DNA of 27,795 bases from a virus (IMGVR_UViG_2703718828_000002:1-27795); one strand, 5' to 3'. Numbered from the stretch's first letter, positions 136 to 15,056 are shown. Numbers and translations: made by a program. The notes: a model not told the origin generated them from the letters alone.

Positions 136-161
136 ATGGCGTGCAATTGCACGCCATTTTT
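136..161 (+). terminator. Rho-independent terminator between convergent genes
   Basis: Perfect 22-nt palindrome ATGGCGTGCAATTGCACGCCAT (136-157) followed by T-run 157-161; lies between the stop of the partial ORF (120) and the stop of the minus-strand MTase (160-162). Confidence 0.5.
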
Positions 162-1191
162 AATTTGAAAGGTGCTTGAGAATACTTTGCCCAATGATCT
201 CGCCTAACCTTACCGGCACTGCATTTCCTATCATTCTTGCTGTTGATGCAATGTCCAAACTAGATTCTTTATCGAAAAATAAATAATCTTTCGGAAAACT
301 TTGCAGTATCGCAGCTTCTCTTAAGGAGATTGCCCTGTTTTGTTCTGGATGACCAAAGCGTCCATTACCAAAACCATAGCATTGTGTGGTTATTGTTGGA
401 CTTGGTTCATTCCATGACATCCTGCCATAAACACTTTTATAAAATTTTCCAGACTCTTTTAAGTGACAAGGTGCTCTCAAGTGTATCGGCCAATCATGCC
501 AATCGCCTCCGGGCTTTGAAGCTTTAATACGCTCCATGTTCAAAGGGCTAAGAGTAGAACATTTATGAAGTGGATCGCGCTTGTCACATTCTCCAGCATT
601 TAATGATGGAAGGCCAAATATTGCATCCTTAACAGTTACGTAATTTTTTTTGTTATGAGTCGGATCAATTATAGAGATAGGACCTAATTTGGATGCTAAT
701 AATACTAAACGTTTACGAGTTTGCGGCATTCCATAATCTGGGCAAAAAACGATCTTATAATAAACATTATATCCATGGCCTTCAAGGTTGTTTATGAAAT
801 CTTTAAATATGTCTTGTGTCATCAAGCCTGGTACATTCTCCATCGTGACGATAGAGGGTTGCGTTTCATCAATTAACCGCGAAAAAGAATATAATAATGC
901 CCATTTGTCATCTTTTTTCTTGTTTTTAGTTCTTCCATATGTTGAAAACGGCTGACAAGGAGCGCATCCAGCTAAAATCGTTACATCTGAATCTTTAAAA
1001 TGACTGAGGATCTGTTCACCCTTCAAAACGGTTATGTCTTGATTGATAAAAACTGCATTATTATTAAATTCAAACGCAAAACGGCAGGTTTCTTCAATAT
1101 CATAACCTGCTACAACATCAATGCCTGATTGCTTTAACCCATGGGTTAGCCCCCCGGCTCCGCAAAATAAATCTACTGCTTTGATTTTCAA
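160..1191 (-). CDS. DNA cytosine-5 methyltransferase (Dcm-like m5C MTase), copy 1
   Basis: 343-aa translation carries m5C-MTase motifs: DLFCGAGG (motif I), GCAPCQPFS (catalytic PCQ, motif IV), ENV (motif VI), QTRKR (motif VIII), GNAVPV (motif X). Start codon is TTG (rc of 1189-1191). AT-rich relative to the integrase next to it. Confidence 0.9.
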   Translation of the reverse strand: MKIKAVDLFCGAGGLTHGLKQSGIDVVAGYDIEETCRFAFEFNNNAVFINQDITVLKGEQILSHFKDSDVTILAGCAPCQPFSTYGRTKNKKKDDKWALLYSFSRLIDETQPSIVTMENVPGLMTQDIFKDFINNLEGHGYNVYYKIVFCPDYGMPQTRKRLVLLASKLGPISIIDPTHNKKNYVTVKDAIFGLPSLNAGECDKRDPLHKCSTLSPLNMERIKASKPGGDWHDWPIHLRAPCHLKESGKFYKSVYGRMSWNEPSPTITTQCYGFGNGRFGHPEQNRAISLREAAILQSFPKDYLFFDKESSLDIASTARMIGNAVPVRLGEIIGQSILKHLSN

Positions 1192-1263: not shown

Positions 1264-2457
1264 TCACATCATTTCTTTGACTTTGCTTCCCCACCATTTC
1301 ATAACTACAGCACGTTGTTCAAGGTATGTGCTACGGTTGTAGGCTCTACGTACCTCATTTTTGTCTGAATGAGCTAAGCAAGCCTCAATAACATCTGCGT
1401 TAAAGCAAGCTTCATTCATCGCGGTACTTGCTATAGAACGTAAACCATGCGCAACGAGCTTTCCATTATACCCAATACGTTTCAGTGCAGCATTCGCCGT
1501 TTGGCTATTCATCGGTTGCTTAGGATCATTCCTACTAGGGAATACGTGTACACGATGGGCACTGATAGGTTTCATTACTTCAAGTACCTCAAGTGCTTGA
1601 GGTGACAAAGGAACAATGTGCTCGCGTTTTGCCTTCATCCGCTCTGCTGGAATTGTCCATAGCTTAGCCTCAAAATCTATCTCTGACCATTGAGTACCGG
1701 AAGCTTCTGAGGGCCGTACGATAGTCAGTAGTTGCCATTCAATCAGGCAGCGAGTCGGGACTGATAGGTTTGACATAACCAATGATCGCATTAACTTTGG
1801 CAGTTCTTCTGGCCGCAATGTCGGCATGTTTTGCTTTTTAGGTTTCTCAAATGCCATACCAACACCTGATGCTGGGTTGCCATCAATCAAGCCGGTGTTA
1901 ACCGCATAAATCATTATCTCGTTGATGCGCTGCACCAGTCGACGTACAGTCTCAAGCGCCCCACGAGCTTTGATTGGCTCAAGAGCTTCAACCAGTGTAC
2001 GGGCTTTGATTTGCTGAACGGGGATCTCACCGATGGCAGGGAATACATCTTTCTCCAGTGAGCGCCAAATGTCTTTTGCGTAATCAGGAGTAACGCTTTT
2101 GCTTTTGAGCTGGAACCAGTTAGCGGCTACTGTTGAAAAAATACTGTCCAGTGCGATTTGCTGCTGTTCCTCTGCAACTTCAGCTTGAATTTGTGGGTCG
2201 ATTCCGTTGGCTAATAAAGCAAGGTAATTCGCTCTTAACCCTCGGGCATCAGCAAGCGAAAGGGCGGGGAAAGCACCTAGCCCCATCATTGTCCGTTGTT
2301 TTGTCGCCGGACGTTGATAACGAAAGCGCCAGAGCTTTTTTCCACTGGTTTTCACTATCAGGAAAAGGCCATTGCCATCATGCAGCGTTAGATCCTTCTC
2401 TAACGCTTTAGCGCGAAGAACTTCGGTATTGGTCAGGGGGCGTGTTGTCCGTGCCAC
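1264..2457 (-). CDS. int: P4/CP4-57-type tyrosine integrase (ssrA-targeting IntA-like)
   Basis: 397-aa translation beginning MARTTRPLTNTEVLRAK...LWRFRYQRP resembles P4-family integrases as recalled; GTG start (rc of 2455-2457) preceded by AAGGAG 8 nt upstream; the ssrA 3-prime core lies about 185 nt upstream on the same strand. Confidence 0.85.
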   Translation of the reverse strand: MARTTRPLTNTEVLRAKALEKDLTLHDGNGLFLIVKTSGKKLWRFRYQRPATKQRTMMGLGAFPALSLADARGLRANYLALLANGIDPQIQAEVAEEQQQIALDSIFSTVAANWFQLKSKSVTPDYAKDIWRSLEKDVFPAIGEIPVQQIKARTLVEALEPIKARGALETVRRLVQRINEIMIYAVNTGLIDGNPASGVGMAFEKPKKQNMPTLRPEELPKLMRSLVMSNLSVPTRCLIEWQLLTIVRPSEASGTQWSEIDFEAKLWTIPAERMKAKREHIVPLSPQALEVLEVMKPISAHRVHVFPSRNDPKQPMNSQTANAALKRIGYNGKLVAHGLRSIASTAMNEACFNADVIEACLAHSDKNEVRRAYNRSTYLEQRAVVMKWWGSKVKEMM

Positions 2458-2818: not shown

Positions 2819-4339
2819 TTATTCAGGCTTTAATTTATTGATAATAGAATCTACCATTTTAATGCCTGCCTCATTGACTATGACTGAATTGACTACTCTA
2901 TCAAAATAGTCTTCTATATGGTGGGAAAATAGGAAAGCAGCACTTGATGGTTTTTTGTTCTTTTCAACTGCAGATTGCAAGACTTCATGAGGCGGAATTT
3001 TAAACCTTTTGCATGATGCAATGAGATATTCAAACTCTTCAAATGATAGACAAAAAATATTCTCTGTAGGGATATGATAGTTATGTTTAAACTTGTCATA
3101 TATCTTATTCATCTCATCTTTAGCATAAGTATTAGCTAGGATACTACCATTGCCTAAGAAAAGGTTTTTATATGTAATGCAAATGATATATGAGTTAGCC
3201 CTGAATGGAGCTATTATTCGCTCATTAGAGTATATTTCTCGATTAACTTCGTGAGATTGTTCGATTGCTTTTAATACCGATTTCTTTATTTTTCCTGCAA
3301 TATCCTCAGGGCGTAATGTTACCATGCCTTTTTGGTGTATCTCAACGCCTTTAGCATCAATGAAAATATTTGCCTCAGTATGTGGAATGAAATAATCAAC
3401 TACTTTATTATCTTTAGGTAGTCGTTCTTTAAGGTATTTTTCGTTATGAAAATCAATTTCGCTTTCTTTTAGTATTAATTCCAGTGCATTTTCAAATACA
3501 TTTCCAAAGCTATCCATGAACTTCTCGGCATCAGTTCTTCTTAAAAGATCATATATGAACGTCTGTATGCTTGTTGAAGTCAGTTGTGTGTGTATCTGAA
3601 AATACTCTGAACCTTTTTTTATTAATGGTTTTTCAAGGAAAGGTGATGATGAGTAGTATTCAAGCAAAGGTTTATCATAGGTTTTTGATTTGCAAAATGT
3701 AGATAGTTCATTGTAATTTATTGATATTGCATCAAGAAATTTCTCAATGGTATTTCTAGGAATGATGTCAAATAATATAGTAAATGTATCTACATTCATT
3801 TTTCTCACGGGATGCTCTTCTGTTATGTGAGTTATTAATATGTAAGATAGCTTAAGAAAGTCTTCTATAGATACATTCGTGATAGTAAAAAAACTTGTCT
3901 TTATTTTATGGTTTTTTTCAAGTTCTGAAAATAGAAAGACTTGTCTGCTAATTGTGTTTAGAGCGTCAATTTTCTGGTAGATTCCTTGTTGGTATAGATT
4001 ATTTCTAATGAAGAAATGCATGCCATTCTTCCTCTCAAGACCGATAGGAATAATGTTCAAGGTTTCATAAGTTTTTTGGAAGAGTTTTATTGCTTGATTT
4101 TTATCGAGGATTTTGAATTTTTTATTCTTGCCAGTTACTGACGCAGACCACTTTAGACATAAATTAACAATCCAAGGCATGTGTCGTAACATGTGGATAT
4201 TATCTTCAAATTTTTGTAAGTTATATTGCATACAGAATTCGATAAATAAATCAGGGGAATAACCTTGGATTTCTGAACGAATAGCATCCATTCTTAACTT
4301 TGCAACCGCATCAGATTGAATATCTAATTTTTGAATCAC
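2819..4339 (-). CDS. Hypothetical 506-aa protein; AT-rich cargo gene between the att core and the prophage integrase
   Basis: Long uninterrupted ORF with markedly lower GC than int; GTG start (rc of 4337-4339) with GGAG 9 nt upstream overlapping the int stop; no family recognised by eye. A weak D...DxK pattern (VVDYFIPHTEANIFIDAKG) is the only motif-like element noted. Confidence 0.65.
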   Translation of the reverse strand: MIQKLDIQSDAVAKLRMDAIRSEIQGYSPDLFIEFCMQYNLQKFEDNIHMLRHMPWIVNLCLKWSASVTGKNKKFKILDKNQAIKLFQKTYETLNIIPIGLERKNGMHFFIRNNLYQQGIYQKIDALNTISRQVFLFSELEKNHKIKTSFFTITNVSIEDFLKLSYILITHITEEHPVRKMNVDTFTILFDIIPRNTIEKFLDAISINYNELSTFCKSKTYDKPLLEYYSSSPFLEKPLIKKGSEYFQIHTQLTSTSIQTFIYDLLRRTDAEKFMDSFGNVFENALELILKESEIDFHNEKYLKERLPKDNKVVDYFIPHTEANIFIDAKGVEIHQKGMVTLRPEDIAGKIKKSVLKAIEQSHEVNREIYSNERIIAPFRANSYIICITYKNLFLGNGSILANTYAKDEMNKIYDKFKHNYHIPTENIFCLSFEEFEYLIASCKRFKIPPHEVLQSAVEKNKKPSSAAFLFSHHIEDYFDRVVNSVIVNEAGIKMVDSIINKLKPE

Positions 4340-4351
4340 AATAGGTCTCCA

Positions 4352-5365
4352 CTACAAATTATAAAGAGGATTTTTAGTCACCGCGTCTTCAAGGTGATCG
4401 GGCGAAAAGTGGGCGTAAATCATGGTCATTTTTATATCGGCATGACCCAAAATATCACGCAGTACCAGTATGTTTCCGCCGTTCATCATAAAGTGACTGG
4501 CGAATGTATGGCGAAGCACGTGGGTGCATTGGCCCTCCGGTAGGTCAATACCGGCCCGCTTTACTGCCCGCTCAAAGGCTTTTCTGCATGGCGTGAATAA
4601 CTTTCCTCTGTTTTTGGGGAGTTCATCATACAGATCCTGAGATATCGGCACAGTACGGTTTTTCTTGCCTTTTGTTTTTGTATAAGTAATTCGGTATTTC
4701 GATATTTGATGGCCCTGCAGATTTTCGGCTTCACTCCACCGTGCGCCAGTAGCCAGGCATATTTTTGCAATCATTAGTAAGCTAGGGCTTTGAGATTCAG
4801 CACATGCCGCCAACAGGCGCTTGATTTCGTCCGTGGAAAGAAAAGCCAGCTCACCTTCGGCAATTTTGAAGGTCGGAAGTCCTGCCAGCGGGTTTGGTGC
4901 TGACCAGTGTCCTAGTTTTTTTAATGTACCGAACACAGATGATAGATTGCGCTGTTCAAGGTTTACCGTGCGGGGCTTAACGGGCGACATCAGCGTGCCA
5001 TCTTCATTTCGCACTTCACCTTTTAGCCGTGCTTCGCGGTATTTCGTAAAGTCACCGGCAGTCAGCTCTGAAGCGATGGGATCGCCCAGACCATTACAGA
5101 TAATTCCAAGTTTCGCCATGAGTCGCTTGGGGTCTGCGAGTGTTTGACCATACAGGGAATACCACAGCTCAATTAATTCTGATAGGTGTCGCCGATCTTC
5201 CTTTTCTCCCAGCCAAGGTTTCTTGTTTACCTCGTCCATGGTGAAATTCTCAAACGCAATGGCTTCGCCTTTCGTCGCAAATTGTTTGCGTACGCGTTTG
5301 CCATCTCGCCCGTTTGGGTAGCATTCACATAACCACTTTCCGTTCGGCTGTTTTCTGATGGTCAT
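4352..5365 (-). CDS. int: P2/186-family tyrosine integrase
   Basis: 337-aa translation with C-terminal tyrosine-recombinase signature region (...HVLRHTFASHFMMNGGNILVLRDILGHADIKMTMIYAHF) consistent with R..HxxR..Y catalytic residues; ATG at rc 5363-5365 one nt after the repressor stop. Confidence 0.9.
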   Translation of the reverse strand: MTIRKQPNGKWLCECYPNGRDGKRVRKQFATKGEAIAFENFTMDEVNKKPWLGEKEDRRHLSELIELWYSLYGQTLADPKRLMAKLGIICNGLGDPIASELTAGDFTKYREARLKGEVRNEDGTLMSPVKPRTVNLEQRNLSSVFGTLKKLGHWSAPNPLAGLPTFKIAEGELAFLSTDEIKRLLAACAESQSPSLLMIAKICLATGARWSEAENLQGHQISKYRITYTKTKGKKNRTVPISQDLYDELPKNRGKLFTPCRKAFERAVKRAGIDLPEGQCTHVLRHTFASHFMMNGGNILVLRDILGHADIKMTMIYAHFSPDHLEDAVTKNPLYNL

Positions 5366-5366
5366 A

Positions 5367-5999
5367 TCAAAGGCTCTTAATGATTTTCAGTGCGCGGCCT
5401 ATTACCTCAATGTCATCCAGTTCGCACTCAAACGATGAATCATCCTGATGCACTACTAATCTGTTTCCCGGGAGTCGTGTCAATTTTACAATGCTTTTTA
5501 TCCCGTCGATGTCCACTAACCACGTACCATTTACTGGTGGTGTTTGGTTGCGATCTATTAAATAAGAATCACCAGAAGTAGTCACCAGCAGCAGGTTGCT
5601 TGAGTCTGAGGGGAGTATGCTGCTATCAATGATTGCTTTTCCAGCATCGATCAGCAAACCTCCGTTGAGAGTTGCCTTGTCAATTTCAGGAGATACAAGC
5701 TCCGAAAGAGGTTTAACTTTGCTAGAGTTCACGGAATTGATATTTTTTTTAGGGTCAATGTTTGAACCTGGATCGCCCTGTCCGGTAGTTAGCCACAGTA
5801 AAGAAACTCCTGTTTCCAAAGCGCACTGAATCACCCATTCTGCAGGAAAACTATCTCTTAAGTATCTGTTTGCCATAGTGCTTTTTGATGCGCCCAAGTG
5901 ATCGCAAAGTTGCTGTCTGGACTTGAAATCATAGGCTGCCATTAGCCTATGGATAGCCTCTCTTCCCCCTGTATTCTCGCCAGCTTTTACTTGTATCAT
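5367..5999 (-). CDS. cI: CI-type immunity repressor (phage 186 CI-like)
   Basis: 210-aa protein on the int strand, divergent from the apl/cII operon; motifs CALETG..LLWL.TGQG and LWLVDIDG...LTRLPG...FECELDDI match the 186 CI layout as recalled. Confidence 0.75.
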   Translation of the reverse strand: MIQVKAGENTGGREAIHRLMAAYDFKSRQQLCDHLGASKSTMANRYLRDSFPAEWVIQCALETGVSLLWLTTGQGDPGSNIDPKKNINSVNSSKVKPLSELVSPEIDKATLNGGLLIDAGKAIIDSSILPSDSSNLLLVTTSGDSYLIDRNQTPPVNGTWLVDIDGIKSIVKLTRLPGNRLVVHQDDSSFECELDDIEVIGRALKIIKSL

Positions 6000-6916: not shown

Positions 6917-7117
6917 ATGCTGACGAAAGAACCATCATTTGCATCGCTGCTGGTAAAACAAAGCCCGGCAATGCACTACGGTCACGGCTGGATCATGGGG
7001 GAGGATGGTAAACGCTGGCATCCGTGCCGTTCACAAGATGAATTGCTGGCAGAACTATCTACGAAAAAACGGGGGAACAAATGGCTATTGAAGGCGCTGC
7101 GGCGACTGTTCCATTAA
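6917..7117 (+). CDS. Hypothetical early protein (186 fil position)
   Basis: ATG at 6917 preceded by GAGG (6908-6911) right after the cII stop; the track start at 6887 lacks an RBS. Function not recognisable from sequence. Confidence 0.4.
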   Translation: MLTKEPSFASLLVKQSPAMHYGHGWIMGEDGKRWHPCRSQDELLAELSTKKRGNKWLLKALRRLFH

Positions 7118-7422
7118 GCCCCGGTGAACGCCTGAATGGACTTAACCATATTGCGGAGTTAAGGGCGAAAGTATTTGGCCTGAATATTGAGTCAGAGCTT
7201 GAGCGGTTTATTAAAGATATGCGTGATCCACGGGATATCAATAACGAACAAAATAAACGGGCACTGGCTGCTATATTCTTTATGGCAAAAATTCCAGCTG
7301 AACGTCATAGCATCAGCATTAATGAGCTGACCACTGACGAAAAGCGGGAGTTGATTAAAGCAATGAATCATTTTCGTGCAGTGGTGAGCTTATTTCCCAG
7401 ACGGCTAACCATGCCGAATTAA
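7081..7422 (+). CDS. Hypothetical early protein
   Basis: 113-aa ORF with GGGGGAA RBS upstream of ATG 7081; overlaps the previous gene end; no motif recognised. Confidence 0.5.
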   Translation: MAIEGAAATVPLSPGERLNGLNHIAELRAKVFGLNIESELERFIKDMRDPRDINNEQNKRALAAIFFMAKIPAERHSISINELTTDEKRELIKAMNHFRAVVSLFPRRLTMPN

Positions 7423-7950: not shown

Positions 7951-8804
7951 GCACCATCCTGAAATGGGCGGGAAATAAAACCGCCATTATGTCCGAACTG
8001 AAAAAACACCTTCCTGCTGGCCCGCGACTGGTTGAACCTTTCGCGGGTTCCTGTGCTGTGATGATGGAGACGGATTACCCCAGCTATCTGGTTGCGGATA
8101 TTAATCCTGATTTAATCAACCTCTATAAAAAGGTTGCCGCTGATTGTGAATCGTTTATATCTCGCGCCAGAGTTTTATTTGAGATCGCAAACAGGGAGGT
8201 GGCTTATTACAACATAAGGCAGGAGTTTAATTACTCCACTGAAATTACTGATTTCATGAAAGCGGTATATTTCCTGTATCTCAATCGTCACGGTTACCGT
8301 GGTTTATGTCGCTATAACAAGAGCGGGCATTTCAACATTCCCTACGGTAATTATAAAAATCCGTATTTCCCTGAAAAAGAAATTCGCGCATTTGCAGAAA
8401 AAGCCCAGCGGGCAACGTTTATCTGCGCCAGCTTTGATGAAACGCTGGCGATGTTGAAGGCGGGGGATGTGGTGTATTGCGATCCGCCGTATGACGGCAC
8501 GTTTTCCGGTTATCACACTGACGGCTTCACTGAAGATGACCAGTATCACCTGGCATCCGTTCTTGAACATCGGTCATCAGAAGGACATCCGGTCATTGTT
8601 TCTAACAGTGACACATCCCTGATCCGTTCGCTGTATCGCAATTTTACTCACCACTACATCAAGGCAAAACGCAACATCGGTGTGGCAGCTGGCGAGGGTA
8701 AATCAGCAACAGAAATCATTGCTGTTTCCGGGCCGCGCTGCTGGGTGGGATTTGATTATTCGCGTGGCATGGACAGTTCTGCCGTGTACGGAGTACGTGC
8801 ATGA
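7947..8804 (+). CDS. dam: DNA adenine methyltransferase (Dam-like, N6-adenine)
   Basis: N-terminal LKWAGNK AdoMet-binding motif and catalytic DPPY (VYCDPPYDG). ATG 7947 with GGAGG 6 nt upstream, overlapping the previous stop (ATGA); the track start at 7887 has no RBS. Confidence 0.9.
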
Positions 8805-11215
8805 GTCATGCCGATATGAACAACTGCTGCGGCTTTAACGAGGCTACCGCAGCATTCTCATGGAACAGCCCGAAAAAGGCCATTAACCCTTATCTGGACC
8901 CGGCGGAAGTTGCGCCGGTTTCTGCGCTTTCAAACCTGATCACTCTGTACGCTGCCGATAACGAGCAGGAACAACTGCGCCGTGAGGCACTGAGTGATCA
9001 GGTCTGGGAGCGTTATTTCTTTAATGAATCCCGTGATCCTGTCCAGCGCGAAATGGAGCAGGATAAGCTAATTAGCCGGGCAAAGCTGGCGCATGAGCAG
9101 CAGCGTTTTAATCCAGACATGGTCATTCTGGCGGATGTCAACGCCCAGCCTTCCCATATCAGCAAGCCGCTGATGCAACGTATTAAATACTTCAGCAACC
9201 TGGGCAGGCCAAAGGCTTATTCCCGCTATTTGCGTGAGACGATTAAGCCATGCTTGGAACGACTGGAGCATGTACGCGACAGCCAGCTATCTGCATCTTT
9301 TCGTTTTATGGCAAGCCATGAAGGGCTGGACGGTCTGCTGATCCTGCCTGAAATGAGTCAGGATCAGGTGAAACGCCTGTCCACCCTTGTCGCTGCGCAT
9401 ATGAGCATGTGTCTTGATGCCGCTTGTGGTGATTTGTACGCCTCCGATGATGTTAAGCCGGAAGAAATCCGCAAGACATGGGAAAAGGTGGCAGCAGAAA
9501 CCCTGCGACTGGATGTCATACCGCCTGCGTTTGAGCAACTCCGCCGGAAAAGAAACCGCCGCAAACCTGTGCCCTATGAACTCATTCCGGGTTCGCTGGC
9601 GCGTATGCTGTGCGCCGACTGGTGGTATCGGAAATTATGGAAGATGCGTTGCGAATGGCGGGAAGAGCAGTTGCGTGCTGTCTGTCTGGTCAGCAAAAAA
9701 GCATCTCCCTATGTCAGCTATGAAGCCGTGATGCATAAACGTGAGCAGCGCCGTAAGTCGCTGGAGTTTTTCCGTTCTCATGAACTGGTGAACGAAGACG
9801 GCGACACGCTGGACATGGAGGATGTGGTAAACGCCAGCAGCAGCAACCCTGCGCATCGCCGCAATGAGATGATGGCCTGTGTTAAAGGCCTGGAGCTTAT
9901 CGCGGAAATGCGCGGTGACTGCGCCGTTTTCTACACCATCACCTGTCCGTCACGTTTCCATTCCACGCTAAATAACGGCAGGCCCAACCCGACCTGGACA
10001 AATGCGACGGTAAGACAAAGCAGTGATTATCTGGTTGGCATGTTTGCTGCATTTCGTAAGGCGATGCACAAAGCCGGATTGCGCTGGTATGGCGTGCGGG
10101 TGGCTGAGCCGCATCATGACGGTACAGTTCACTGGCACCTGTTGTGTTTTATGCGCAAAAAAGATCGCCGCGCCATTACTGCTTTGTTGCGTAAGTTTGC
10201 CATTCGTGAAGACCGCGAGGAGCTGGGGAATAACACGGGACCACGCTTTAAGTCTGAGTTGATTAACCCGCGCAAAGGAACGCCGACAAGCTACATCGCG
10301 AAATATATCAGTAAGAACATTGACGGGCGTGGTCTGGCTGGCGAGATCAGCAAGGAAACGGGTAAATCCCTGCGTGATAACGCTGAATACGTGAATGCCT
10401 GGGCGTCTCTGCATCGTGTTCAGCAATTCCGCTTCTTTGGCATTCCGGGGCGTCAGGCTTACCGTGAACTGCGATTGCTGGCTGGTCAGGCGGCAAGGCA
10501 ACAGGGTGACAAAAAAGCAGGTGCGCCGGTACTGGATAACCCGCGCCTTGATGCCATCCTGGCTGCTGCTGATGCTGGTTGTTTTGCCACCTACATCATG
10601 AAGCAGGGCGGCGTACTGGTTCCCCGCAAATATCACCTCATCAGAACCGCTTATGAAATCAACGAAGAGCCAACCGCCTATGGCGATCACGGTATTCGTA
10701 TTTATGGCATCTGGTCACCCATTGCAGAGGGCAAGATCTGCACTCATGCAGTGAAGTGGAAAATGGTTCGTAAGGCCGTTGACGTTCAGGAGGCGGCAGC
10801 CGACCAGGGCGCTTGCGCCCCTTGGACTCGTGGCAATAACTGTCCCCTTGCTGAAAATTTGTACCAACAAGGGAAAGACAAATCAGCTGATGGGGATACC
10901 AGAACGGATATTACCCGTATGGATGACAAGGAGTTGCACGATTACCTGCACAGTATGAACAAAAAAGAACGCCGGGAACTGGCTGCAAGATTACGCCTGG
11001 TGAAACCGAAACGGCGTAGAGACTACAAACAGCGAATTACAGACCATCAACGACAGCAGCTCGTCTATGAACTGAAGTCCAGAGGATTTGATGGCAGCGA
11101 GAAAGAGGTCGATTTACTCCTTCGCGGCGGCAGCATTCCGTCAGGAGCAGGCCTGCGTGTCTTCTATCGGAACCAGCGTTTGCAGGAAGATGATAAGTGG
11201 CGGAACCTGTATTAA
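8801..11215 (+). CDS. A: Replication initiation protein A (rolling-circle nickase, P2 gpA family)
   Basis: 804 aa with HUH-type motif [10 protein letters not shown] and paired tyrosines YIAKYISK; ATGA overlap with the dam stop; size and position match P2/186 gene A. Confidence 0.9.
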
Positions 11216-11307
11216 TTACGCGGGTTAACAATTCGTGCTCTTAATAATACCAGGCATATCAGGCTGATGAACGTAAAAAAACGTTTTACATCAGTAAGAT
11301 TATTGTA

Positions 11308-11327
11308 TACTGTAAATATAAACAGTG
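11308..11327 (+). promoter_or_regulatory. LexA (SOS) box
   Basis: TACTGTAAATATAAACAGTG contains a perfect CTGT-N8-ACAG with AT-rich spacer (core 11310-11325), about 40 nt upstream of the small ORF at 11369. Confidence 0.6.
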
Positions 11328-11368
11328 GTTATGCATACAGTATTGCGTGTGGTGTCATAGGAGGAAAG

Positions 11369-11557
11369 ATGCAGGACTATTTTTTGGAGTCTTTGAAGCT
11401 CCAGCGCATTGATTTTTTTCTTAAGCTTGTAGCGGCCAGTGAGTGTAGTGATGAAGAGAAGGGGCTGGCTCTGCAGTGGGTTTCTGAATTGACTGATGAA
11501 CTCATGGCAAAAATCAGAACCCACGAATACAACCGCTCAATGGATGTCATCAGTTGA
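11369..11557 (+). CDS. Small hypothetical protein, first gene of the LexA-boxed module
   Basis: ATG 11369 with AGGAGGA RBS (11359-11365); 62 aa; its TGA stop (11555-11557) is embedded in the RBS of the next gene. Confidence 0.5.
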   Translation: MQDYFLESLKLQRIDFFLKLVAASECSDEEKGLALQWVSELTDELMAKIRTHEYNRSMDVIS

Positions 11558-11567
11558 GGTGACTTTT

Positions 11568-11801
11568 ATGCGCATTGAAATAATGATCGATAAAGAGCAG
11601 AAGATTAGCCAGTCTACCCTGGACTCTCTTGAATCCGAGCTTTACCGCAATCTGAGCCCCCTGTATCCCAAAGCGGTAATTCGTATCCGTAAAGGTAGCG
11701 CCAATGGTGTTGAACTGAGCGGGTTAAAACTGGATGAAGACAAAAAGCGAGTGATAGAAATCATGCAGCAGGTCTGGGAGGACGATAGTTGGTTACATTA
11801 G
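11568..11801 (+). CDS. DinI-family protein (SOS-inducible, possible Tum-like antirepressor component)
   Basis: 77 aa MRIEIMIDKEQ...IRIRKGSANGVELSGLKLDEDKKRVIEIMQQVWEDDSWLH aligns by eye with E. coli DinI (MRIEVTIAK...ISEILQETWESADDWF); RBS GAGGTGA 11556-11562. Confidence 0.7.
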   Translation: MRIEIMIDKEQKISQSTLDSLESELYRNLSPLYPKAVIRIRKGSANGVELSGLKLDEDKKRVIEIMQQVWEDDSWLH

Positions 11802-11842
11802 CGAACAGAATTTAGCCAAGCGATAAGTCATTCATCCAAGGG

Positions 11843-11865
11843 GGCGGCGTTTGCCGCACTTTTAT
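11843..11865 (+). terminator. Candidate terminator after the DinI-like gene
   Basis: GGCGGCG-TTT-GCCGC hairpin followed by ACTTTTAT; marks the boundary between GC-rich phage DNA and the AT-rich cargo block. Confidence 0.35.
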
Positions 11866-11998
11866 GGATGTTAGAACTAGTATTTTAGATCTTTATTTTA
11901 TTTAACATTTTGATTGTTATGCATTTTATTTGTTTTTGTTACTTTTGTCTGTAAAAATTTTGTAGGGTAAAATCATCATCGAAGTCGAGTTAAAATGA

Positions 11999-12007
11999 TG
12001 CTACAAT
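11999..12007 (+). promoter_or_regulatory. Candidate extended -10 promoter for MTase copy 2
   Basis: TGcTACAAT at 11999-12007, about 27 nt upstream of the TTG start; RBS AGGGAGGA at 12021-12028. Confidence 0.3.
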
Positions 12008-12034
12008 CCTTCAAGTATAGAGGGAGGACTTATT

Positions 12035-13075
12035 TTGATTAAAGTTGTTGATCTTTTTTGCGGAGCAGGTGGCTTAACTCATGGTTTGCAACGAGCAGGG
12101 TTGAATGTGGTTGCAGGCTATGATATTGATGCTACATGTCGGTATGCTTATGAAAAAAATAACAATGCTTTATTTGTGCAAAAAAGCGTCACTGAACTTG
12201 ATGAAGGGGAAATAAGTAAGCATTTTAAGGATGCATCAATTAAAGTTTTAGCTGGATGCGCTCCATGCCAGCCATTTTCTAGTTATACAAATACTGATAA
12301 ATCAGTAAAAAAAATAAAAGACCATCGATGGTCTTTATTGTATAGCTTTGCTAAGCAAATTCAATTATGTGCTCCAGATATAGTCACAATGGAGAATGTT
12401 CCAAGAGTTATTAACCACAAAGTTTTTAAAGATTTTGTGAAGACTTTAAAGTCTGAAGGGTATTTCGTTTGGTATGATACTGTATTTTGTCCTGATTATG
12501 GAATGGCCCAAAGCCGATCTAGATTAGTGTTATTAGCGTCCAAGTTTGGCGAGATAAAACTAATCCCGCCAACACATGATAAAAATAACTATAACACTGT
12601 ACGTAGCGTTATTGGTGGATTGCCTCCTATTGATGCTGGATCGAGTGATGAGAAAGACAGACTTCATTATGCTGCATCTTTATCACCATTAAATATGGAG
12701 CGAATAAAACATTCTAAGCCAGGTGGAACATGGAAAGATTGGCCTGAGTACTTACGGGCGTCATGCCACACCAAAGAATCAGGATCTTCTTACACTGCAG
12801 TTTATGGAAGAATGAGCTGGGATAAACTTGGCTCTACAATTACAACACAATGTATAGGTTTTGGTAATGGTCGATTTGGTCATCCAGAACAAAATAGAGC
12901 TATTAGCCTAAGAGAGGCAGCTTTGCTTCAATCTTTTCCTCTAACTTATGAATTTTGGCCAGCTGAAGTAAAAGTTGAACTCAGGAATGTTGCACGACTG
13001 ATTGGTAATGCTGTGCCGGTGAGGCTCGGTGAAGTTGTTGGGCAAAGTATTATTGAACACCTTAAAAGAAAATAA
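12035..13075 (+). CDS. DNA cytosine-5 methyltransferase (Dcm-like m5C MTase), copy 2, paralogous to copy 1
   Basis: 346 aa with DLFCGAGG, GCAPCQPFS, ENV, QSRSR and GNAVPV motifs; collinear by eye with the 160..1191 protein along its whole length; TTG start with strong SD; AT-rich. Confidence 0.9.
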   Translation: MIKVVDLFCGAGGLTHGLQRAGLNVVAGYDIDATCRYAYEKNNNALFVQKSVTELDEGEISKHFKDASIKVLAGCAPCQPFSSYTNTDKSVKKIKDHRWSLLYSFAKQIQLCAPDIVTMENVPRVINHKVFKDFVKTLKSEGYFVWYDTVFCPDYGMAQSRSRLVLLASKFGEIKLIPPTHDKNNYNTVRSVIGGLPPIDAGSSDEKDRLHYAASLSPLNMERIKHSKPGGTWKDWPEYLRASCHTKESGSSYTAVYGRMSWDKLGSTITTQCIGFGNGRFGHPEQNRAISLREAALLQSFPLTYEFWPAEVKVELRNVARLIGNAVPVRLGEVVGQSIIEHLKRK

Positions 13076-13099
13076 AAAGGGCGAATCGCCCTTTTTTTT
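13074..13099. terminator. Bidirectional terminator shared by the convergent MTase and GHKL genes
   Basis: A-run, GGGCG-AAT-CGCCC hairpin, T8 run; overlaps both stop codons (13073-13075 and 13098-13100). Confidence 0.5.
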
Positions 13100-15056
13100 A
13101 GATACCATCAACAATTTTCATTATTCGTGCAGCATCATCTTTTTTGCTCTGATACTCAGAGTATGCTTGTTTGGATTGTATTATAAGATCGCTATATGTT
13201 AATACCTTTGCATTTATAGATTGTAGCTGTGAGCGAATATAATTATCTCCACTTCCGTCATAACCTTTGCCGACAAGAAAAACTACATCTATCGGTGGTA
13301 TTTTTCCGGCAGGGCAACTATTTGGGTTGTTTCTAAACCACTGCTCTGTGGCAACAACATATTTCCTTCCTTGACCTACTAATGCCAAAATATCAGGATA
13401 TACATTTGGTCTTTTCATTTCAATGATGACGTGTTTACCTGAAACGGTTTTGAAGGCTATATCAATTCTTGCACCACTTTCAGCGTCAGGGTTAACCTCT
13501 TTCAATTCCTTAGTCAGGGTTTGTTCCATAACTGTAGAACCAGTAACCCTCTCCCATGATGGGTCTAACAGCCATAAGTGGTCATAAAGATATTTTTGTA
13601 CAGCCTTCTCTAACTCATTGTCATCGGTGATTTTTTGAAATTTCTCAATAACTTTCAATCGCTGTGATGTAATCTCATAAAAAAGGCTTGCCTCAATATC
13701 ATTTACAGAAGCAAAAACCTCCCTAAAATGTTCTGAGTTTAAATCGCTAATTTTATCTAAAGCCTCAAGGTTATCTTTTATTCTTAATCTTTCAAAAGCA
13801 AGAACTGTATTTTTTAATACGGTTTTTTTTGCAATTTTCTGGTTTTCTTCATCTCCAGAAAATCTAAATGTGTTAATTTTGCCTAGTAATTTTTCGGCGC
13901 TGTTTCTTTCATGTTTTGACATGGAATCAAGCCAATCACTTACAGCAGGTGAAGTTTTTTTAACCTCGCTAAGACCTTTTGCTCTTCGCCATTCATCCCA
14001 TTCTTTATCTATTTTTTGTAATGTCCGTTCTAAGAAACCCTTAATCACAGGATAGCGTGGATCATTCTGCTGTAATTTCTGTCGGGATGAGGTTGCCATG
14101 TCAGGTTTTTCATTTTCATCTAAAAAATCTGCGACAAGTTCCCCTACTAAATAATTTGTAAAAACCTTTGCGCTTCCGAATTCAAGCAATATATCTTCTT
14201 CAAATACCCGCCCATTTGATATTACGGTTATCGTGTTGTTAGATATTTCAGGGTCTTTTTTAAGTTGAGATGGTTTCTCAACACTTCCTACATAACCAGT
14301 AATGAAATAATCTACGCCTTCAAAAGATAATTTGTTATCTAGAAGGCTTTTTTTAGAAAGATTTTTGCAAGATTTTACTCTTGCGGGATCTGAACTACCA
14401 AACTCCCATAAAAATTCAAGATCTGAAAGGAAGTCTCTATCTTCAGTAGTTATCTCAGTGTCATTGATTTTAACTATAAAATCATGACCAGGACCAATTA
14501 TGCTAAACCGTCTGGCAAGTCTTTTTCTTAGATAGGTCTGAGTTCTATCAATGGATTTTTTTAAATCCATAAGAACTATTGTCGTCCCTATACTAAAGTC
14601 TTTCGGAACATTAATAATATTTGCAACATATTGTTTACTGCTTTTTATACAGCGTTGCAATTCATCAACGTCAACTTCAAATCCCTGAGGCGTTTGGCCA
14701 ATTTTGTGAGAAAATACTTGGATTTTGTTAGCTAATGAAAACATTGCTAATTTACCAATGCCTTTTCTACCCATGACTTGTCGTTGTAATCCATCACTTT
14801 TATACCTTCCACTTTCTCTTCTGGCATATCCAACTTTTAGGAATTTATTAATGATGTCATCTTTTGACATTCCATGTCCATCATCTTTAATTATTACCTT
14901 TTCATTTTCAACATCTAGAGTGATGTCTACATTTTTAGCATCCGCATCCCAAGCATTTGAGATTATTTCAGTTAGAACAGCTGGTGTGTTAGAGTAAAGA
15001 CTCATACCTAAATGATTCAATACATTCAGGTCTATTTTAATTTCGAAATCGGACAT
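13098..15056 (-). CDS. GHKL-superfamily ATPase (MORC/MutL/Hsp90-like Bergerat fold) with C-terminal PD-(D/E)xK-like motif; candidate effector partner of MTase copy 2
   Basis: 652 aa. N-terminus carries N-box EIISNAWDADA, G1 box DDGHGM and G2 box GRKGIGKLAMFS; C-terminus carries RIDIAF...12 residues...IIEMKRP (D...ExK). ATG at rc 15054-15056 with AAGGA RBS; AT-rich. Confidence 0.8.
   Translation of the reverse strand: MSDFEIKIDLNVLNHLGMSLYSNTPAVLTEIISNAWDADAKNVDITLDVENEKVIIKDDGHGMSKDDIINKFLKVGYARRESGRYKSDGLQRQVMGRKGIGKLAMFSLANKIQVFSHKIGQTPQGFEVDVDELQRCIKSSKQYVANIINVPKDFSIGTTIVLMDLKKSIDRTQTYLRKRLARRFSIIGPGHDFIVKINDTEITTEDRDFLSDLEFLWEFGSSDPARVKSCKNLSKKSLLDNKLSFEGVDYFITGYVGSVEKPSQLKKDPEISNNTITVISNGRVFEEDILLEFGSAKVFTNYLVGELVADFLDENEKPDMATSSRQKLQQNDPRYPVIKGFLERTLQKIDKEWDEWRRAKGLSEVKKTSPAVSDWLDSMSKHERNSAEKLLGKINTFRFSGDEENQKIAKKTVLKNTVLAFERLRIKDNLEALDKISDLNSEHFREVFASVNDIEASLFYEITSQRLKVIEKFQKITDDNELEKAVQKYLYDHLWLLDPSWERVTGSTVMEQTLTKELKEVNPDAESGARIDIAFKTVSGKHVIIEMKRPNVYPDILALVGQGRKYVVATEQWFRNNPNSCPAGKIPPIDVVFLVGKGYDGSGDNYIRSQLQSINAKVLTYSDLIIQSKQAYSEYQSKKDDAARIMKIVDGI

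Follow-up and report, generated by a model that had tools for sequence, protein, structure and literature searches.

A probable SOS induction module in split tumA/tumB form in a Fels-2/186-like Escherichia coli prophage

We analysed a 27,795-nucleotide stretch of viral DNA (IMGVR_UViG_2703718828_000002:1-27795; hereafter the window), which represents a P2/186-group prophage of E. coli; it is matched at 99.9% over its full length by two complete chromosomes of this species. The subject of this work is a two-gene unit at positions 11308-11801. A sequence-only reading had described it as an SOS-controlled module consisting of a LexA box and two short open reading frames (ORFs), the second encoding a DinI-family protein, and each of these elements was found where it had been placed. 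Our analysis makes it very probable that the unit serves the SOS induction of a Fels-2/186-like (Peduoviridae) E. coli prophage and represents the split tumA/tumB type of module. The further proposal, that a LexA-repressed, Tum-like antirepressor unit serves as the induction switch, is supported by the genomic slot, the type of CI repressor, homology to both halves of the phage 186 Tum protein and the genetics of DuoHS, the P2-like prophage of E. coli HS. Neither the kind of system nor this exact split form is new; genetic proof exists for an orthologue identical at 61 of 62 residues. The additions made here are small: a double operator of the colicin type, a mismatch between the divergence of TumA and that of CI, and a mosaic tumB beside a swapped-in type II restriction-modification cargo. 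Coordinates of all features are collected in Table 1.

Results

Genes of the module and their relation to 186 Tum

The anatomy of the module, its homologies and its conservation are read directly from the window. A tum module placed after gene A is common to the window, 186, PSP3, Fels-2 and HS, in agreement with the earlier suggestion that the position is equivalent to that of 186 tum. The layout of promoter and LexA box also matches the annotated 186 p95-tum locus. The window has TTTACA-17 nt-TACTGT and 186 p95 has TTCACA-18 nt-TACTGT; in 186, too, TACTGT forms the first six bases of the LexA box. Judged from sequence, a near-consensus LexA box overlaps the -10 region of the module promoter.

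We compared both ORFs with 186 Tum, an alignment that had been proposed as a check, and found that ORF1 (tumA) and ORF2 (tumB) together correspond to the two halves of the single 146-aa Tum. ORF2 aligns with Tum residues 71-145 (39% identity, E 6e-23) and covers the whole Pfam DinI profile (PF06183, positions 1-63/63; 80.6 bits against a gathering cut-off of 24.2, 1e-22). It also matches E. coli DinI (PDB 1GHH, residues 1-77; E 6e-8) and carries the conserved acidic C-terminal motif VWEDDSW. For ORF1, homology to the N-terminal (antirepressor) half of Tum is seen at the profile level. ORF1 matches phrog_698 (3.6e-38), phrog_8554 (2.4e-8) and phrog_1993 (2e-3), and the N-terminal 61 residues of 186 Tum match the same families (2.7e-5, 1.4e-11 and 1.4e-22, respectively). 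In a direct alignment, TumA and Tum have residues in common around the invariant Cys26 and Ala34-Leu35. The profiles of all four PHROG families of the Tum N-terminal half are 61-66 residues long, which indicates that TumA often occurs as a free-standing protein. No Pfam family covers ORF1, and a PDB sequence search with it returned nothing. The AlphaFold model of TumA is a two-helix hairpin (helices 2-23 and 28-61; mean predicted local distance difference test score 90). A Foldseek search of this model against the PDB gave generic helical hairpins only, none at E<=0.001, and since such neighbours are uninformative the fold gives no clue to function.

The stop codon of the small ORF had been noted as embedded in the ribosome-binding site (RBS) of the DinI-like gene. 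This is indeed so: TGA 11555-11557 lies within TTGAGGTGA, the RBS for ATG 11568, and the gap from the tumA stop to the tumB start is 10 nt. A free DinI-like protein results from three different arrangements, namely an internal GTG in 186, a 3-nt gap in PSP3, and a 10-nt gap with a strong RBS in the window.

That the split into two ORFs deserves attention, as the sequence-only reading put it, holds in so far as the split is real; it had, however, already been documented in the PSP3 tumA/tumB annotation and by Lemire 2011. Because 186 carries both parts in one 146-aa protein and the split point coincides with the domain boundary, one could suspect a 186-like single gene that was broken by a nonsense mutation and is now decaying. 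Yet each ORF has its own strong RBS, and dN/dS (the ratio of nonsynonymous to synonymous substitution rates) against orthologues is 0.04-0.18 for both ORFs (0.06-0.12 for tumA), as expected if both are under strong purifying selection. The split form occurs in more than 1000 E. coli genomes (1125/5426 complete genomes, about a fifth) and in many phages, including numerous Klebsiella, Salmonella and Yersinia phage records. It is represented by several separate small-protein PHROG families of 61-66 aa and is functional in DuoHS, and 186 itself makes a free DinI-like product from its internal GTG. Purifying selection and wide distribution together rule out a decaying remnant, and we give the pseudogene explanation next to no weight.

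A tumA-like gene that is preceded by a LexA box but has no adjacent dinI-like gene annotated is present in two P2-like phages, ESSI2_ev040 (7953-8213) and Yersinia vB_YenM_06.16-2 (6950-7132). The existence of such tumA-only phages fits TumA as the essential part of the module. In ESSI2_ev040 the LexA box falls inside the annotated 86-aa ORF, so the real start is probably an internal Met.

Genetic evidence from orthologous prophages

The need for tumA, the need for a cleavable LexA and induction by DNA damage are experimental results obtained in near-identical orthologues. In DuoHS, either deletion of tum or a lexA(Ind-) allele abolishes induction by mitomycin C (PMC12055606). The primers used for the deletion define a junction, ATAGGAGGAAAGATG joined to TGAGGTGACTTTTATGCGCATTG, that fuses the ATG and the TGA of the small ORF (PMC11195241). 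The deletion therefore coincides with the 62-aa ORF, and neither the dinI-like gene nor its RBS is affected (PMC11195241). The window contains both junction flanks without a mismatch (11349-11371 and 11555-11577). ORF1 is identical to its HS orthologue at 61/62 residues, and the -35, the -10, the operator and the RBSs are identical base for base. The mechanism, and the deletion and induction test that the sequence-only reading had suggested for the window, have in effect been run on this orthologue.

These data bear on where the first gene starts. The frame is open from ATG 11267, which would give a 96-aa ORF and turn CTGT-N8-ACAG into coding sequence instead of an operator, and many database entries for tumA-like genes have 84-106 aa. 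Such an extension would, however, start upstream of the -35 hexamer, and there is no RBS before 11267, while AGGAGG precedes 11369. The PHROG profile spans the whole short form (residues 1-62), the gene is annotated in RefSeq with 62 aa, and the operator is shared with colicin promoters, which are non-coding. Finally, the DuoHS deletion from the ATG of the small ORF (window 11369) to its TGA suffices for the phenotype. We consider the longer ORF extremely improbable. The 84-106-aa entries start at an ATG upstream of both promoter and LexA box, and some carry the name 'levan regulatory protein'; these long forms and odd names are probably start-site and naming errors that have spread through annotations.

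The same deletion addresses the possibility that the module is mainly a host-directed SOS modulator, a prophage dinI that tunes RecA, with the small ORF as a leader or accessory. TumB is a clear DinI homologue, the 186 record says of the short products that they 'modulate SOS induction', and LexA-regulated dinI genes are also found in Gifsy prophages. TumB is moreover far better conserved across lineages than TumA (84% versus 20% identity between window and PSP3), as would be expected if TumB acts on a conserved host target (RecA) and TumA on one that is specific to the phage. Nevertheless, DuoHS induction is lost when the small ORF alone is deleted, the upstream gene of PSP3 has antirepressor activity (Christie, personal communication in Bunny 2002, via Lemire 2011; PMC3121763), and tumA-only phages exist. 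We therefore regard this explanation as highly unlikely for the module as a whole; host-directed modulation is probably true of TumB alone. TumB most likely acts on RecA filaments, and we conclude that in the module TumB is an accessory modulator.

Lemire 2011 describes Tum as resembling an antirepressor fused to DinI and notes that a stop codon splits tum in Fels-2 and PSP3 (PMC3121763); the same paper, citing Shearwin 1998, states that 186 Tum binds CI and blocks DNA binding by it. The 186 record likewise annotates tum with 'expression repressed by LexA; inhibits CI DNA binding' and places the LexA site over the p95 -10. In the PSP3 record, tumA is 'similar to 5' end 186 tum; UV induction of prophage' and tumB is 'similar to dinI and 3' end of 186 tum'; the Fels-2 record refers to PSP3 TumB. 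In Salmonella, STM2727 is listed in a table of the LexA regulon as 5.5-14.8-fold up by the mutagen MX, and STM2726-STM2728 are listed as a co-regulated operon (PMC2225428). By gene order we take STM2727 to be the Fels-2 dinI-like gene, a point on which the paper itself is silent. We also count the lexA-null lethality connected with Fels-2 as orthologue evidence for LexA-controlled induction.

A double LexA operator upstream of tumA

The sequence-only reading had placed a near-consensus LexA box about 40 nt upstream of the small ORF. This part stands: the full 20-mer TACTGTAAATATAAACAGTG (11308-11327) agrees with the E. coli consensus TACTGTATATATATACAGTA at 17/20 positions and ends 41 nt before ATG 11369. 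What it missed is a second SOS box that overlaps the first. The CTGT-N8-ACAG core has a single occurrence in the window, at 11310-11325 (expectation 0.26; at least one match in 20/100 shuffles), and the 20-mer is the only window site with three or fewer mismatches (0/100 shuffles gave one). An exact CTGT-N8-ACAG box is found at this position ahead of tumA in eight other phage or prophage lineages, and box 1 is identical in sequence in HS, Fels-2 and 500465-1. A LexA box precedes tumA in all lineages examined, distant ones included, except ST13phi12.1, where box 1 is degenerate (CCAG).

In a MAFFT alignment, the single LexA box of 186 and PSP3 aligned to the sequence just 3' of window box 1, not to box 1 itself. 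On inspection, a second site, GTGG-TTATGCAT-ACAG, was seen at 11325-11340; it is the box listed in Table 1 as GTGGTTATGCATACAG. The composite pattern CTGT-N8-MCAGTGG-N8-ACAG has one occurrence in the window (11310-11340) and none in shuffles. We fetched Fels-2-type loci from HS, Fels-2, 500465-1, MLG42, ST512-KPC3phi13.6, ST13-OXA48phi12.1 and PEC1011 and found the double operator upstream of tumA in every one of them despite diverged flanks. It is absent from 186, PSP3 and Yersinia vB_YenM_06.16-2, which have a single LexA box.

A blastn comparison of 11300-11349 with plasmids matched small Col plasmids (84-86% over about 43 nt), and the matching stretches immediately precede the genes for colicin N (cna) and colicin R (cra). 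Judged by its sequence, the operator at 11310-11340 is a colicin-type double overlapping SOS box, in which two 16-bp sites share one base pair. The colicin N and R promoters have the same CTGT-N8-(A/C)CAGTGG-N8-ACAG, collinear with the window operator. Colicin box 1 ends in CCAG, whereas window box 1 is a perfect CTGT-N8-ACAG; and the colicin double box drives a toxin gene, while that of the window drives an antirepressor operon. The colicin double box is bound by two LexA dimers, which gives very tight repression and expression in a small fraction of cells (PMC2994835). By analogy, LexA would occupy both boxes in the window, and we infer that tumA of this lineage is a tightly locked SOS gene. 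Tight repression of tumA would be sensible because firing this switch kills the cell. In a limited literature search, with Bunny 2002 beyond reach, we found no earlier mention of the double operator or of the TumA/CI mismatch described below.

The target repressor and the divergence of TumA and CI

The sequence-only reading favoured an antirepressor over a self-cleaving repressor, and the repressor gene of the prophage agrees with this. The CI protein matches the structure of 186 CI (PDB 2FJR, E 3e-25; also 2FKD), and a Pfam scan at E<=0.001 found Phage_CI_repr and Phage_CI_C only, with no Peptidase_S24 autocleavage domain. Lambda-type induction by repressor self-cleavage was rejected on this ground, since CI has Phage_CI_C in place of Peptidase_S24.

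We then looked at the divergence of TumA and CI. Between the window and Fels-2, TumA is 98% identical and CI only 59% (N-terminal domain 69%, C-terminal domain 53%); for ST13-OXA48phi12.1 the values are 89% and 39%. Across discordant pairs, TumA is 82-98% identical and CI 39-62%. The expectation that TumA identity follows CI identity was not borne out: several pairs are strongly discordant, and TumA identity tracks the adjacent A gene (Spearman 0.73) better than CI (0.59). These comparisons suggest either that TumA sees a conserved CI surface or that it is promiscuous like the Gifsy antirepressors. Only three CI positions, A53, W55 and S189, are invariant in the phrog_698-type group and different elsewhere. 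They are a lead, not evidence, since nine sequences are too few to separate such a pattern from phylogeny. Two of them, A53 and W55, belong to the FPA(D/E)W motif of the CI DNA-binding domain and may be candidate contact positions for TumA.

The lack of co-variation with CI is one of several observations that weigh against our assignment, because a strictly specific antirepressor would be expected to co-vary with its target. A direct BLASTP comparison did not align ORF1 with full-length 186 Tum, so the homology between TumA and Tum draws on the PHROG profile links. A generic sigma-70 promoter scan did not call the SOS promoter. TACTGT agrees with TATAAT at only 3/6 positions, and a better alternative -10, TATACT at 11306-11311, has a spacer of 15 nt. 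With the generic scan silent, the promoter assignment draws on homology and conservation. A terminator scan picked up a hairpin, GTCATC-AGTTGA-GGTGAC, at 11546-11563, which spans the tumA stop and the tumB RBS and runs into TTTTAT; HS and Fels-2 keep the stems unchanged, whereas the loop varies. As a mask of the tumB RBS or an attenuator it was rejected, its predicted stability being no better than that of shuffled sequence (z -0.30), and structural coupling of tumA and tumB is accordingly not claimed. A further limit is that induction of the window prophage itself by this module is argued from orthologue genetics.

Comparison with related systems

The closest relatives are Fels-2 of Salmonella LT2 (STM2728/STM2726.1), with module DNA 93.7% identical to the window, and HS (ECHS_RS04495/ECHS_RS04500). 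Both have the slot after gene A, the two-gene split form, a TumA identical at 61/62 residues and identical -35, -10, double operator and RBSs. They differ from the window in the 3' half of tumB (only about 80% identical), and Fels-2 also in its CI. In PSP3 the architecture is split in the same way, and one promoter carrying a LexA box follows gene A. Its box (19/20) is single where that of the window is double, its tumA stop and tumB start are 3 nt apart without a strong RBS, and its TumA is much diverged. Coliphage 186 uses the same slot, a LexA box on a TACTGT -10 and a 186-type CI target, and its Tum halves resemble TumA (about 19% identical) and TumB (39%). In contrast to the window, the halves are fused in one protein, the LexA box is single, and the DinI-like part is also made from an internal GTG, as a product recorded as 'truncated Tum - modulates SOS induction'.

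The Gifsy/Fels-1 antirepressors GfoA, GftA and FsoA are likewise encoded in a LexA-repressed operon with a small antirepressor and a DinI homologue. Induction there proceeds by antirepression in place of repressor self-cleavage, and the antirepressors are able to target more than one repressor (PMC3121763). The likeness considered here is one of organisation; these are lambdoid phages with an unrelated repressor family, and the gene order is reversed (dinI first).

Prophage context and the variable slot next to tumB

From CI the gene order continues with an Apl/Cox-like excisionase, CII, Fil, a DksA-like zinc-finger protein, Dam methylase and A. An Rfam scan of 11000-12100 gave a single match, which was below threshold and implausible. 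A cargo island of low guanine-plus-cytosine content (33-40%) occupies 12035-15056, between tumB and the portal gene; in it, a type II restriction-modification pair takes the place of the orf97-like gene of 186, Fels-2 and HS. Other cargo in this slot of relatives includes an ATP-binding protein with RloB, a TIR-domain protein and a Cas2-like protein. The tumB gene itself is mosaic: its first 105 nt are 97% identical to Fels-2/HS and its last 126 nt about 80-82%, with a breakpoint near 11672, and the C-terminal half of TumB is almost identical to that of PSP3 TumB. The conserved tumB gene apparently provides the left arm for recombination in this variable cargo slot.

A second methyltransferase and a second tyrosine integrase lie left of the prophage integrase (Table 1) and suggest a further integrated element that abuts the prophage. 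For the 506-aa ORF just past the prophage integrase, neither Pfam nor PADLOC gave a match; its counterpart by position in Klebsiella phage ST512-KPC3phi13.6 is a hypothetical gene of about 516 aa.

Table 1. Features of the module and of the surrounding window (positions counted from the first nucleotide of the window)
Feature	Position	Strand	Remarks
m5C (5-methylcytosine) DNA methyltransferase, second	160-1191	-	PADLOC MTase_II 7e-99; left of prophage integrase
Tyrosine integrase, second	1264-2457	-	Left of prophage integrase
506-aa ORF	2819-4339	-	
Integrase	4352-5365	-	Prophage integrase
186-type CI immunity repressor	5367..5999	-	Presumed TumA target; Phage_CI_repr 6e-31, Phage_CI_C 5e-28
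Replication endonuclease A, 804 aa, P2-type	8801-11215	+	Same strand as module; module (11285-11801) directly downstream
Putative -35 of SOS promoter, TTTACA	11285..11290	+	186 p95 counterpart; kept in HS, Fels-2, MLG42, ST512phi13.6
Putative -10, TACTGT	11308..11313	+	Within LexA box 1; by analogy with annotated 186 p95 -10
LexA (SOS) box 1	11308..11327 (core 11310-11325)	.	TACTGTAAATATAAACAGTG; unique in window
LexA (SOS) box 2	11325..11340	.	GTGGTTATGCATACAG; G11325 common to box 1
Shine-Dalgarno of tumA, AGGAGG	11359..11364	+	4 nt ahead of ATG 11369; conserved
tumA-like gene, 62-aa antirepressor (putative)	11369..11557	+	Homologue of 186 Tum N-terminal half
Shine-Dalgarno of tumB, GAGGTGA	11556..11562	+	Overlaps tumA TGA; invariant in HS, Fels-2
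tumB-like gene, 77-aa DinI-family protein	11568..11801	+	Homologue of 186 Tum C-terminal half
Terminator-like GC hairpin with T-run	11843..11857	+	Positional counterpart of 186 t95a; consensus match only
m5C DNA methyltransferase	12035-13075	+	PADLOC MTase_II 3e-87
652-aa GHKL-ATPase-type restriction enzyme	13098-15056	-	PADLOC REase_II 9e-91

Discussion

We propose the following mode of action. In an undamaged cell, host LexA would sit on the two overlapping SOS boxes, which span the -10 region and the start of the promoter just 3' of replication gene A, and the two-gene operon would be silent. DNA damage would activate RecA, LexA would cleave itself, and tumA and tumB would be transcribed. 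The 62-aa helical hairpin TumA would then bind the 186-type CI directly and prevent it from binding its operators. With CI off, the lytic promoter would fire, and excision and replication of the prophage would follow. TumB (77 aa, DinI-like) would be accessory and not an antirepressor; most likely it would act on RecA filaments and tune the strength or duration of the SOS response.

Two modest points stand out: the double operator and the discordant divergence of TumA and CI. They could be joined in a switch that is both tuned and promiscuous, with a double operator that fires only on sustained damage and one TumA that serves diverse CI repressors; we put this forward tentatively and consider it rather unlikely. 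If this holds, TumA could, like the Gifsy antirepressors, induce other Fels-2-like prophages of different immunity that reside in the same cell.

The mechanism is established for 186, deduced for PSP3 and Fels-2, and genetically confirmed in the E. coli HS prophage. For annotation, the present analysis is of use because the 62-aa gene still carries labels such as 'hypothetical protein' and 'levan regulatory protein' or is miscalled as a 96-aa ORF. Overall, the module explains how DNA damage is sensed by a class of prophages that is very common in E. coli, Salmonella and Klebsiella, and it helps to predict which P2-like prophages are inducible by SOS-triggering antibiotics.

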